Below are positions 2,181 through 14,466 of a stretch of DNA of 27,542 nucleotides, in pieces (within the stretch, counting starts at the first letter, position 1; every line of letters begins with the position of its first letter). A program made the translations under genes and the position numbers. The DNA comes from a virus. The DNA is taken from UHGV virus genome UHGV-0297460. One strand, 5' to 3'. The notes beneath the pieces were generated by a model. It was not told where the DNA came from and made no database searches. It saw nothing but the letters and a program-made list of their open reading frames with translations.

Positions 2181-3598
2181 TACTCGATCCTTATCTGGCA
2201 GCCAGACAGAGTGACAGGTGACTTCGTGATAACGCGCAATTTGAAGCCGACATTTTTCCTGATGCGCCCGACTCGCTTCCACAAAACGCGTTTGTCGTAA
2301 ACAAACGGTTCATTCTGCTCAATCATCTGCTCACGACCGTAATTGATGCCGTCAGTGGTTGCAGAGAGAAAAAGGCGGTCGGCGTACTGCGCAACGCCAG
2401 TTGAAGATTCAACTTCAAGGTCGAAAACTCTGGCGTTATCCGCTTTGAACAGAGGAGTAAACAGCAGATGCTCCTGTTGCTTGTCGTACTGGCTGCTGAT
2501 GTCGAATTGCAATTTCCCGGTCACGGACTCCAGCTTATCGCCGCACGTTATCTGATTGCCTTCGTAAATGAAGTCGATAGCGCGGTACACATCGTCATAC
2601 AGACCTGTTTTCAGTACACACCATTGCGGAGCATTGGCGCTTGAAGATGCGTCGTATACGAGGACATGGCGCGGAAGATGGATAATCAGCAGCTCATGCG
2701 CATCAAATCGCAGAGACTCCATCACACCATCAGCCAGTTCATCAGCAGTGTAGGAGCGAAGAATTTTCTCAATGCTCGCGCTGGCGATTGGTGACACCTG
2801 CCCGGAACCGATGATGTATACAGACGGCGCACCTGTTGCCGGATTGCTGATGAACGCATAGGAATCAGCGAATGGCGTTTTGCAATAGGTTCCGGCGATG
2901 CCTTTTTGCACCATCAGTGATGGCTGTGCGACATACAAAGCAGCACCAACGGTGGTTGCGCCAGTCAGGGAGAAATATTCAATAGTCGATGAACCAAAGC
3001 AGACGATGAAGTCTCGCCATGTCCCGATACCGATGATGCCGTCCGGCTGCGATTCTGCGCGATATTGTGCACTGTATCGGTCAGGGTGCGATTCGTCTTC
3101 AAGGTCAGTGATAAACCATGAATCAGTTCCGTCTTTTGACCACGCATAACGCCCACGTAAGCGAGTAATGTCGCGAACTGAACCTAACTCATACTGCGTG
3201 AATCCACTGTCTGTAGGCCAGTTTGAGACGGTTTTAACCGTGCCATCATAACGATACTCGACCAGTTGACCATTAACGCCTACAGCCTGTGATGTTCGAC
3301 CATGCGCCATTGATACGCGACCACTTCCGGCGACGTCACCAACTTCGCTTTCTCCTTTGTACAGCTTGCCGCCACACACGCGATAAACAGCACTCTGCGC
3401 CATGTTGTACTCGACGCCGCGCGATATACCATTCACATCAGAACGTTTGGCAATGCCCGGGAATGAGCGAAGATATCCGCTGCTGTTCAGGATTTCTTTG
3501 GGCGTAGCCAACATATTCACTGGCAGATAGTCGATATAGTCGGCGTTTCGAAAGTCTTTGCCGACACCTTTCATAAGCGGAAGTTGCTGAATCGGCAT
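2180..3598 (-). CDS. Tail accessory (head completion) protein, P22 gp10-like
   Basis: 472 aa, [49 protein letters not shown]... near-identical in pattern to P22 gp10 as recalled. Confidence 0.9.
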
Positions 3599-11948: not shown

Positions 11949-12386
11949 TCATCGAAGGCATTGCGTCCTGATGTACTCCTGCAGGTAGTTAACCTGCGCG
12001 GTTATCCTGTCGATTCCACTTCGGAGACGGTAATAATTGAGTTCAGCATCTGCTGTAAGTCTTGGGTTTTCTCCATCGCCCATGCTGCTGGCTCCGGTCG
12101 TTGACTTTGCACAGGTGGCGGCGACTTGCAGGCGCTTACGCCCAGCAGAAACATCAGCACGGAGACTTTCGATAGTCGCGTTAGCATCAGCAAGCTCCTT
12201 TGTGTATCTTGCGTCGAGTTCTGCTACATCACGTTGACGCTTCCGCATATCAGCGATGATGGATGTGGCTTTATCGCGCTGCTCTTTGTAGGCGATTGCA
12301 TTATCACGGTAATGATTAACAGCCCATGACAGGCAGACGATGATGCAAATAATCAGAGCGGAGATAATCGCGGTGACTCTGCTCAT
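11949..12386 (-). CDS. Rz: Spanin inner-membrane subunit Rz (i-spanin)
   Basis: 145 aa; N-terminal TM segment, coiled-coil; start overlaps endolysin stop; lambda Rz-like. Confidence 0.85.
12002..12193 (-). CDS. Rz1: Spanin outer-membrane lipoprotein Rz1 (o-spanin), embedded in Rz in a different frame
   Basis: 63 aa ORF wholly inside Rz; signal peptide with lipobox ...LLGVSAC, proline-rich [13 protein letters not shown]. Confidence 0.75.
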
Positions 12387-12859
12387 ACCTCAATCTCTCT
12401 GACCGTTCCGCCAGCCTCTTTGAATTTTGCAATCAGGTTGTCAGCCTTATGCTCGAACTGACCATAACCAGCGCCCGGCAGTGAAGCCCAGATATTGCTG
12501 CAACGGTCGATTGCCTGACGAATATCACCGCGGTCAATCATCGGTAAAGCGCCACGCTCTTTAATCTGCTGCAATGCCACAGCGTCCTGACTTTTCGGAG
12601 AGAAGTCTTTCAGACCAAGCTGCTTACGGTAGGCATCCCACCAACGGGAAAGAAGCTGGTAGCGTCCGGCGGCTGTTGATTTGAGTTTTGGGTTTAGCGT
12701 GACAAGCTTGCGAGGGTGATCGGAGTAATCAGTAAATAGCTCTCCGCCTACAATGACGTCATAACCATGATTTCTGGTTTTCTGCCGTCCGTTATCAGTT
12801 CCCTCTGACCACGCCAGCATATCGAGGAACGCCTTACGTTGATTATTGATTTCCACCAT
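12383..12859 (-). CDS. R: Endolysin, lambda R-type lytic transglycosylase
   Basis: 158 aa, [51 protein letters not shown]... essentially lambda R as recalled. Confidence 0.95.
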
Positions 12860-13166
12860 CTTCTACTCCGGCTTTTTTAGCAGCGAAGCGTTTGATAAGC
12901 GAACCAATCGAGTCAGTACCGATGTAGCCGATGAACACGCTCGTTATATAAGCGAGATTGCTACTTAGTCCGGCGAAGTCGAGAAGGTCACGAATGAACC
13001 AGGCGATAATGGCGCACATCGTTGCGTCGATTACTGTTTTTGTAAACGCACCGCCATTATATCTGCCGCGAAGGTACGCCATTGCAAACGCAAGGATTGC
13101 CCCGATGCCTTGTTCCTTTGCCGCGAGAATGGCGGCTAACAGGTCATGTTTTTCTGGCATCTTCAT
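12843..13166 (-). CDS. S: Holin/antiholin, lambda S-type (S107/S105 dual start)
   Basis: 107 aa, [36 protein letters not shown]... essentially lambda S; Met1-Lys2-Met3 dual-start motif present. Confidence 0.95.
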
Positions 13167-13762
13167 GTCTTACCCCCAATAAGGGGATTTGCTCTATTTA
13201 ATTAGGAATAAGGTCGATTACTGATAGAACAAATCCAGGCTACTGTGTTTAGTAATCAGATTTGTTCGTGACCGATATGCACGGGCAAAACGGCATGAGG
13301 TTGTTAGCGCAACCTCATGCCACCCGCTTTCACGAAGGTCATGTGTAGAAGGCCGCAGCATAACTATCACTGATGAATTCAGGATAGCCAGTGGCTACGG
13401 CTCAGGTTGGGTTGTGGCGGTCGGTGCTGAACTCCGACTTAATGACGATAGGCGTGTACCGACGCCTCGTTTTACTTCCTCCGCTTTCACGGCTTCACCC
13501 TAGACCAGCTTTACGAAATCCTCGTAAACCTAACCGCGGCAGATATGACCGGCACGGTGTGCCATATCACGGACCGGCGGGTGTCTCGTTCACCTGATTA
13601 ACGCATCAGCCTGCGTATTCACCACAACGATAAGAGTACTGCGCGGCACCTTTCACCAATTCCGCGAGGTCTGCGGGTTCAATGCTCTTACCTGTTGTGC
13701 AAACAAAAAAGCCACCGTTGCAACTTAAGAGTCACTAACGGCAGCTTACCTTCTAATTATGG

Positions 13763-14281
13763 CTAAATGGATAATTGCATGTCAAGGTTTTTAACAGCAA
13801 CATGCTTAACTTTCTCAACACGTTTACGCATTTTGAAAGCATTTTGCATTGGCTGGTATAAAACAAATAATGACGCTTTCAGGATGTCGTCAATTTCGTT
13901 TCTACAGGTTGCCAGTGAAGGTTTTCTCCATCCCTCGCCACCACGTCCACACATCTTGCGTGGCTTTGCAGTCGCGTGATAGTAGGATGCAATTGCTCGC
14001 TTAGATGAACCATGAGCGTAGTAGCTGAGGAGGATGCCAAAGGCTTTCTTGTCAATGTACATGACGGAATCAACGACCTGAGAAATCAACATTCCATCAT
14101 CATCATTACACATTGGCCTTGTCATAATTCTTCCCGGCTCTACGCTCTCCATGAACTTCGCTATTACGCTGCTCATGCGCTTTTCCAGACGACCTGAATA
14201 AACCCATGCGCCCCACAGTTCAAGCCAGCCATTCAGCCACTCGTGCTGCTCTTTGGTGAGGTTTAGTTCTCTTATGCTCAT
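13763..14281 (-). CDS. Putative late-gene antiterminator (Q-like), non-lambda allele
   Basis: 172 aa ORF immediately downstream of ninH and about 600 bp upstream of S, the canonical Q position; sequence is not lambda Q; family not confirmed. Confidence 0.55.
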   Translation of the reverse strand: MSIRELNLTKEQHEWLNGWLELWGAWVYSGRLEKRMSSVIAKFMESVEPGRIMTRPMCNDDDGMLISQVVDSVMYIDKKAFGILLSYYAHGSSKRAIASYYHATAKPRKMCGRGGEGWRKPSLATCRNEIDDILKASLFVLYQPMQNAFKMRKRVEKVKHVAVKNLDMQLSI

Positions 14282-14466
14282 CGTCTTCCCCTCTTGCCTT
14301 GTTTGACCATCAGGACGCCGTTAACTATTACGTGACGCTCGCCTTTGCTGTCTCGGTTGTACTTGAGCACTGTTCCTCTTGCGCAGGAAAGCATCCTCGC
14401 CACTTCGGTCTGATTGCCTCGTGTCTGGATAAGAAGCTCTGGTATCGTTTGAATTGTGGCGTTCAT
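14278..14466 (-). CDS. ninH: NinH-like protein
   Basis: 62 aa, ...GNQTEVARMLSCARGTVLKYNRDSKGERHVIVNGVLMV... closely resembles lambda NinH. Confidence 0.8.
   Translation of the reverse strand: MNATIQTIPELLIQTRGNQTEVARMLSCARGTVLKYNRDSKGERHVIVNGVLMVKQGKRGRR

Follow-up and report, generated by a model that had tools for sequence, protein, structure and literature searches.

A probable composite late leader between Q and S of phage CUS-3, with two structured RNA modules in a slot used by other phages for tRNA genes

What fills the leader between the late terminator tR' and the holin gene S? In lambda the late leader consists of pR', the 6S RNA and tR', followed by about 400 nt of non-coding DNA before S, and the content of this 'empty' stretch has long been unexplained in lambdoid phages. 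This is where the value of the present interval lies. The window that we analysed, i.e. the whole stretch of 27,542 nucleotides, is identical over its full length (100% over the whole query) to phage CUS-3, which its record (CP000711.1) describes as a P22-like phage of E. coli K1 RS218. Around the interval the minus strand carries roi, hkbD, rus, ninH and Q, then S, R and Rz/Rz1, and the interval between Q and S measures 596 nt (13167-13762). A listing of open reading frames confirmed that no minus-strand frame of 60 aa or more lies there; the longest have 50 aa (13218-13370) and 31 aa (13395-13490), and the plus strand has one GTG frame of 68 aa. The CUS-3 record calls both ends 'boundary sequences' (bsq4, 13762-13699, and bsq3, 13407-13167) and leaves 13698-13408 without annotation. 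We propose to read the interval as a late-operon leader of composite build, in which a phage-21-type Q cassette, two RNA modules that we call A and B, and a lambda-type S leader form three blocks, and we give this reading a probability of roughly two in three.

The first block belongs with its antiterminator. The gene upstream of the interval (13763-14281, minus strand) encodes a protein of 172 aa that phmmer, Pfam (PF06530) and the CUS-3 annotation all identify as Q, and its match to phage 21 Q (PDB 6JNX/6P18) has a phmmer E of about 1e-91 and spans all 162 residues of Q21. It is thus not lambda Q, as a preliminary description of this DNA had stated. Promoter prediction returned one near-consensus promoter at the Q-proximal edge, pR' (13756-13785, minus strand), which scores 11/12 against the consensus and is the sole strong minus-strand match in 12800-14400. 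Its -35 hexamer, TTGACA (13785-13780), lies within the coding region of Q, and its -10 hexamer, CATAAT (13761-13756), follows after a spacer of 18 nt, 2 nt past the Q stop codon. Aligned to the annotated pR' of HK75 and Sf6, the hexamers show no mismatch, and the Sf6 record calls its own pR' 'nearly identical to phage 21 late promoter'.

Two further elements of this block were picked out by eye on the minus strand. The promoter spacer holds a direct repeat, ATTATCCA / TTTAGCCA (13760-13775), which is probably the Q21-binding element (QBE). The initial transcribed region holds a -10-like hexamer, TAAGCT (13743-13748), which falls inside the 'qut site' annotation of Sf6 once the two phages are aligned and is probably a sigma-dependent pause element (SDPE). 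In phage 21 the QBE consists of two directly repeated subsites of 8 bp each, loading of Q21 needs no more than the SDPE and positions -40 to -1 of pR'21, and two Q21 protomers bind the repeat beside the sigma-dependent pause, Q21 then being a nozzle on the RNA exit channel that blocks terminator hairpins (10.1101/651190). In CUS-3, the promoter overlapping the end of Q, the repeat and the -10-like pause element would together load Q21 onto RNA polymerase.

Folding and alignment place the terminator of the short late leader RNA, tR', at 13705-13747 on the minus strand. Its stem (13747-13709, 17 bp with one bulge, -21 kcal/mol) runs into UUUUUU (the U6 run at 13710-13705), and a simple terminator scan missed it because the stem is bulged. 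It lies about 45 nt from the start site, and the annotated Tr' of HK75 and of Sf6 aligns to it; without Q, it would end the leader RNA at that length. The promoter, the qut region and the terminator of HK75 and Sf6 are annotated at the same aligned columns, without gaps, and CUS-3 is like the phage 21 late cassette, as annotated in these two phages, in Q, promoter, qut region and terminator. Nothing here departs from the ordinary, and sister phages have it annotated already. The preliminary description had foreseen a late promoter, a qut site and a tR'-type hairpin between Q and S. The promoter and tR' are there, at the Q-proximal edge, and alignment places the qut region there too, but the -35 hexamer is inside Q rather than inside the interval, and the hairpin that had been singled out is not tR'.

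The third block is of another origin. The S leader (bsq3, 13167-13407, minus strand), delimited by alignment and by the CUS-3 annotation, is near-identical in lambda, Sf6 and HK75 and about 95-100% conserved throughout. Alignment to the late region of lambda showed this S-proximal block to be common to the four phages: CUS-3 and lambda have the same 240 nt next to S, whereas the sequences of lambda's Q, promoter, 6S RNA and tR' show no relation to their CUS-3 counterparts. The S holin gene itself (12843-13166, minus strand; Pfam PF05106 and CUS-3 annotation) is of the lambda type, and alignment to lambda together with Pfam bears out the earlier description of S and R as lambda-like. Just upstream of the S start codons a hairpin identical to that of lambda, CCCCUUAUUGGGGG (13173-13186, minus strand), is presumably linked to the lambda sdi structure, which controls the choice between the S107 and S105 starts. 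Because the promoter, qut and terminator go with a Q of the phage 21 kind and the S-proximal part is of the lambda type, the interval contains a mosaic junction, and the earlier suggestion that the promoter and qut element fit a non-lambda Q and mark a recombination junction agrees with the alignments.

The S leader also contains the hairpin on which the preliminary description had centred. Folding and alignment to lambda locate it at 13292-13321 on the minus strand, 5'-GGCATGAGGTTG / CGCTAA / CAACCTCATGCC in DNA and GGCAUGAGGUUG-CGCUAA-CAACCUCAUGCC in RNA. The inverted repeat is real, with a perfect stem of 12 bp; only its end had been set 2 nt too far, at 13290 rather than 13292. It is followed on the minus strand by GUUUUGCC, as had been noted, that is by G-UUUU (13291-13287) and then GCC, a run of four U's only. 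The fold is strong (-31 kcal/mol, z = -4.9, with 0/200 shuffles as stable), and the terminator scan made no call there. An outer helix around it (GCGGGU/GCCCGU) was also considered and rejected, the variants giving it no support. One might speculate that tR' is backed up by the hairpin, acting as an additional and weaker terminator or as an RNase III or stability hairpin that Q-modified polymerase passes, a possible but somewhat unlikely role. Its shape and position fit, the site is kept in lambda, Sf6 and HK75, pair 5 shows an exchange, with T-A in CUS-3 against G-C in lambda, and Luk and Szybalski reportedly described, in 1983, tandem terminators downstream of lambda tR'. Yet the U tract is short, and among the 23 distinct versions of the hairpin in the fetched loci the stem is perfect only in the CUS-3 type and one other, most of the rest having 1-2 mismatches; at pair 5 the combinations T·C, G·A, A·C and A·A are common. 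Since the whole S leader is 95-100% conserved, conservation of the hairpin is not specific. It would at most be a weak secondary terminator or a processing or stability hairpin, read through by the modified polymerase.

Between tR' and the S leader, the central 290 nt or so hold two structured RNA modules, A and B, that the preliminary description overlooked. In Sf6 and phage 21 the same slot, directly after tR', is taken by tRNA-Asn and tRNA-Thr genes, and at their 3' ends B (...CCGACCGCCACAACCCA) and tRNA-Thr align. Searches for known RNAs returned nothing at this place. ARAGORN found 0 tRNA or tmRNA genes in the window, and none in HK75 either. On the window, the 4227 covariance models of Rfam 15 gave nothing at the gathering level, only a chance snoRNA with E = 3.2, and the Rfam tRNA model gave no match at E up to 10. 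On 16 related loci (E up to 0.1) Rfam found nothing at B, and tRNAs, C4, isrK and DicF elsewhere. BLAST found pieces of the 290 nt again, always between genes, in unrelated phages whose hosts are Salmonella, Klebsiella, Hafnia, Erwinia and Aeromonas. The whole stretch of 301 nt is no stabler than its shuffles (z = -0.9); the case rests on comparative data because this single-sequence energy gave no support.

Element A (13623-13699, minus strand) was delimited by its fold and by its recurrence with compensatory changes. It starts directly after tR', with a long irregular frame helix CACAAC-AG-GUAAGAGCA ... UACUCUUAU-C-GUUGUG around an interior that has 40 nt in CUS-3, and its fold reaches -27.9 kcal/mol (z = -3.1). 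The frame recurs in dozens of viral contigs and in Skatevirus phages, with unrelated interiors (24-125 nt, which is the range searched) and with compensatory changes such as GUAAGAGCA/UGCUCUUAU, GAGAAGAGCA/UGCUCUUCUC and AUGAGAGCA/UGCUCUCAG. Some interiors hold pieces that resemble a T arm (GGUUCGA) or an anticodon arm, and A may be tRNA-derived too. It usually lies immediately upstream of B, and in CUS-3 its 3' strand (GUUGUG) and B's 5' acceptor strand have 4 nt in common, so that the two helices cannot both form fully. Lambda has its own element A at 44787-44862, 7 nt after the U-run of its tR', and in the position of B comes a closing helix of 9 bp, GUUGUGCUG...CAGCACAAC, with AAU after it (44857-44941, z = -3.95). 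This B-like element of lambda lacks the conserved D-like and T-like hairpins of B.

Element B, 214 nt of RNA in a tRNA-like frame (13413-13626, minus strand), was defined by motif scans, covariation and RNAalifold. It is closed by an acceptor-like stem of 7 bp, UGUGGUG/CGCCACA (13626-13620 with 13419-13413). Within this stem follow an AAU linker (13619-13617), a D-like hairpin ACGCA[GGCUGA]UGCGU (13616-13601), a structured core of about 160 nt in the place of the anticodon arm (13600-13439) and a T-like hairpin GUCGG-AGUUCAGCA-CCGAC (13438-13420) that abuts the 3' acceptor strand. The 3' tail reads ACCCAA, and CCA is not encoded. In the family at large, considering all true matches listed, the frame consists of the 7-bp closing stem, (G)AAU, GCGCA[GGCUGA]UGCGC, an insert of about 30-230 nt, GCCGG-AGAUCAGCA-CCGGC and the 3' closing strand. 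The CUS-3 copy fits this definition, and its D and T stems (ACGCA/UGCGU and GUCGG/CCGAC) depart from the consensus by compensatory changes. In some records B is covered by protein annotations ('hypothetical protein', 'polyubiquitin-A', 'Plp'); interior indels of tens of nt and the compensatory changes in the helices led us to reject a protein-coding reading.

Scans of IMG/VR with three different anchors (the motif on the 5' side, the one on the 3' side, and nothing but the two loops) each recovered the frame among the matches listed, and it is present in more than 250 fetched loci. We aligned 90 distinct frames, with the insert swapped for a fixed linker. In this alignment 98.3% of the cells are paired, a percentage that is inflated by a filter demanding mostly paired stems, which leaves the counts of double changes unaffected. 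Double changes occur in 16/22 pairs, i.e. in all 7 pairs of the acceptor, all 5 of the D stem and 4/5 of the T stem. There are 122 compensatory cells where shuffles lead to expect 16.5, a value that 0/500 shuffles reach, and sliding the partners abolishes the signal (0.02-0.07 in the controls, against 0.25 observed). Covariation thus shows the three helices of the frame.

The sequences GCUGA, in the D-like loop, and UCAGC, in the T-like loop, are complementary and near-invariant in the alignment, and their proposed pairing can be seen as a Watson-Crick version of the elbow that D loop and T loop make in tRNA. The HK75 variant supports such an elbow, since it places canonical tRNA loops in the same frame: its T arm is the canonical GCCGG-UUCGAUU-CCGGC, its D arm comes after a 7-nt strand complementary to the 3' end, and the whole folds as a five-arm cloverleaf-like RNA. 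The CUS-3 copy falls into a subfamily, 65 contigs in size, that has further conserved blocks. RNAalifold on this subclade recovers the frame and predicts an inner domain closed by a helix GGUGAaCGA/UCGUCAUU, within which lie several hairpins with compensatory changes and GNRA loops.

The distribution of B is very broad. An exact 20-mer of the D-like hairpin occurs in the genomes of at least 120 species, from Enterobacterales, Pseudomonas, Xanthomonadales, Burkholderiales and Rhizobiales, with a few MAGs of other phyla among the matches listed. The complete frame accompanies it in 84 of the 120 matches listed, with 48 different acceptor pairs and mostly with the AGAUCAGCA/G loop, though this loop was not an anchor. 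In Gamma-, Beta- and Alphaproteobacteria alike, the two hairpins, D-like and T-like, hardly vary, while the acceptor sequence varies freely and yet stays paired. Such constancy between hosts so far apart suggests that a conserved host factor recognises the hairpins, or else a tertiary or catalytic role. One common variant, with no annotated feature over B, turns up in at least 1580 of the 5426 complete genomes of E. coli (about 30%), as well as in mEp460, in Stx2a and Stx2c phages and in P1-type phage-plasmids, where it lies 84 nt after tRNA-Asn/tRNA-Thr under the annotation 'Plp lipoprotein'. The CUS-3 type of A plus B is found in 348 genomes. E. coli K-12 lacks B in its CPS-53 and e14 regions, which carry it in other strains.

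Recurrent neighbours are nearly all co-oriented with B, with Q-type antiterminators upstream and holin, lysozyme and Rz downstream or, in an alternative context, a LexA-like repressor (ymfK) upstream and yfdP/Q/R downstream; a CI-like repressor and an HNH endonuclease also recur. Clustering of the neighbours of B revealed context genes only and no universal partner protein. Neighbouring tRNA genes lie on the same strand as B in 45 cases and on the opposite strand in 0. Some copies have a consensus promoter of their own, about 12 nt upstream (locus L149), and about 23% of the distinct copies have a terminator-like hairpin at most 150 nt downstream, ten of them within 13 nt. A promoter of its own or an immediate terminator at some copies fits an RNA product.

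What might such an RNA do? We tentatively propose, at somewhat less than an even chance, that B, and perhaps A, represents an undescribed family of phage-borne tRNA-like 'scaffold' RNAs spread across Proteobacteria, in which the frame, with its Watson-Crick 'elbow', would be processed and stabilised like a tRNA and a hypervariable structured cargo would work in trans on such targets as host defences, competing phages or host RNA enzymes. Within the composite-leader reading, A and B of CUS-3 would be transcribed only as part of the Q-antiterminated late transcript, once polymerase has passed tR'. Judging from shape, the acceptor, the T arm and the elbow of B would offer a substrate to RNase P on the 5' side and to 3' trimming enzymes, and the released RNA would accumulate in stable form. 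The variable core would then carry the activity, the frame serving as a scaffold for folding, processing and stability.

Alternatively, A and B might act in cis on the late transcript, as processing sites, as a polymerase-modifying RNA like put of HK022 or as a regulator of S translation, and never be released. This would account for their co-oriented position in operon leaders (from Q to B to holin, or from repressor to B to yfdP), for the place of A directly after tR' in CUS-3 and lambda alike, and for the long helix of A, which seems to resemble an RNase III substrate. We consider it rather improbable. B also occurs in unrelated contexts (in P1 it follows tRNA genes, elsewhere it precedes terminase or tRNAs), a terminator-like hairpin closely follows nearly a quarter of the distinct copies, and the variable core argues against a single shared target in cis.

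Lower still we rank the idea that A and B have no RNA function, being either decayed tRNA genes or mere 'boundary sequences', DNA conserved for recombination between lambdoids. The label given to the flanks in the CUS-3 record, the genuine tRNA genes in this slot of Sf6 and phage 21, the swapping of interiors between otherwise similar frames and the silence of ARAGORN all speak for it. But neither decay nor recombination would keep compensatory changes in three helices, and this idea is also at variance with hairpins that stay near-invariant in three classes of Proteobacteria next to an acceptor that changes and remains paired, with the strict strand bias relative to tRNA genes (45 to 0), and with the promoters or terminators that some copies own.

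Least probable is the original proposal that the hairpin at 13292-13321 is itself the tR'-type terminator of a short leader RNA like the lambda 6S transcript, which could invoke the strength of the hairpin (z = -4.9) and the GUUUUGCC behind it: an annotated and aligned tR' with its U6 run occupies 13747-13705, whereas this hairpin comes about 430 nt after the start site, has four U's where tR' of the 6S type calls for a G+C-rich hairpin with at least 5 U near pR', drew no call from the scan, has 1-2 mismatches in most homologues, and in lambda (about 45040-45071) sits some 260-290 nt beyond lambda's own tR' U-run (44774-44779).

The B family is large and strongly supported and, judged by its absence from Rfam 15, RefSeq annotation and the searchable literature, apparently undescribed. 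Its carriers include P1 (under 'plp'), Stx2 phages, CUS-3 of neonatal-meningitis E. coli and many other proteobacterial prophages. On the scaffold reading, well-studied phages such as P1, Stx phages and the relatives of lambda carry an overlooked class of RNA genes, and its confirmation would add a new class of phage RNA genes and correct several spurious protein annotations. The position of B in the slot of other phages' tRNA genes suggests that the tRNA fold has been put to use by phages to carry other functions of RNA. Should the scaffold reading be true, the 'empty' leader of lambda between tR' and S would be made of remnants of the same modules.

How does B compare with known RNAs? With tRNA it shares the 7-bp acceptor-like stem, the 2-3 unpaired nt, the D-like hairpin and a 5-bp T-like stem leading into the 3' acceptor strand. 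It differs in having neither an anticodon arm nor an encoded CCA, and in its loops, GGCUGA on the D side and 9 nt (AGAUCAGCA or AGUUCAGCA) on the T side instead of UUCRANY, with UUCGAUU in the HK75 variant only. With tmRNA it shares a large insert in the place of the anticodon arm, but its acceptor, UGUGGUG/CGCCACA, has no G3-U70 pair, and ARAGORN finds no tmRNA or tag peptide. The Rfam tmRNA model has no match in the window, and matches the HK75 variant weakly through the T arm.

Other phage RNAs invite the same comparison. YrlA, a bacterial Y RNA, and the stable 'species 1/2' RNAs from T4's tRNA cluster are encoded by phages or prophages among tRNA genes and contain tRNA-like modules; the ends of YrlA are on the anticodon side, unlike those of B. 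The Rfam YrlA model has no match in the window or in the 16 related loci. Pas sRNAs adjoin the holin genes of Stx-type prophages (10.64898/2026.05.13.724894), which is a parallel to A and B and not an identification. In the searchable literature we found nothing on tRNA-like phage RNAs that is relevant to A or B, nor the sequence strings of the B frame. C4 of P1/P7 and CI of P4, from the C4/isrK clan of Rfam, are small structured phage RNAs that RNase P cuts from longer transcripts and whose closing stem mimics an acceptor stem. C4 lacks the pair of D-like and T-like hairpins, and the Rfam C4 model has no match on B. On one contig, a C4/isrK pair lies 2.3 kb from a copy of B.

Element A usually lies directly upstream of element B, and in CUS-3 the two share sequence. 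The 3' strand of A (GUUGUG, window 13623-13628) and the 5' acceptor strand of B (UGUGGUG, 13620-13626) overlap by 4 nt, and the motif CACAAC is present both at 13699-13694 and at 13416-13411. Because of this strand overlap and the presence of CACAAC at both sites, the helix of A cannot coexist with the complete acceptor of B in CUS-3. The acceptor itself is by far the commonest one, found in 57 of the 102 distinct frames of B. The CUS-3 copy of A also reads GUACUC at window 13636-13641 where most relatives have GUGCUC, which leaves a C·A mismatch within the frame helix; this variant is common to 19 of the fetched loci.

The seemingly 'empty' stretch that leads from tR' to S in lambda itself contains element A, right behind the U-run of tR'. 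Where B would be, a 9-bp helix, GUUGUGCUG...CAGCACAAC, closes a structure (z = -3.95), and AAU comes directly after its first strand. The two elements together span lambda 44787-44941 (988-1142 of the fetched lambda locus). HK629 (H3/H36) carries the gene of an HNH endonuclease of the AP2 type as an insertion that separates element A from tR', and in 14 IMG/VR loci an ORF related to this gene ends ~127 nt upstream of B. These positions of the endonuclease genes hint at homing-endonuclease traffic at this site. As for the lysis genes nearby, the search at E up to 0.001 assigned S to a Pfam family, unlike the lambda-R-like endolysin (158 aa, window 12383-12859), which matched none.

Within the interval, the sole terminator-like site that was called belongs to the plus strand, at window 13450-13467. 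It is the antisense of the conserved AAAACG-AGGCG[loop]CGCCU block of B, and this block would therefore read as a hairpin followed by a U-run for antisense transcription. In one B copy, from an IMG/VR contig (L120), an apparently complete tRNA, whose T arm is GGTTCGATTCC, is nested in the variable core.

In the prophage of E. coli 120899 (L284 1969-3692), the variant of B that is most frequent in E. coli lies ~360 nt downstream of ymfK, which encodes a LexA-like repressor, and upstream of yfdP/yfdQ/yfdR, all on one strand. Judging from this gene order, the prophage could express some copies of B together with the repressor. Another viral contig (L015) contains, at 2965-3153 and ~2.3 kb away from a copy of B, one C4 antisense RNA and one RNA of the isrK type, each of which exceeds its Rfam gathering score. 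In P1-like phages, B is found 84 nt past tRNA-Asn/tRNA-Thr (OP279344.1 65636-65769; plasmid L285 2501-2634; also RCS47 and JL22). There, a gene annotated as 'putative lipoprotein Plp' extends over it, and other records label it 'hypothetical protein' or 'polyubiquitin-A'; these protein annotations are probably spurious calls.
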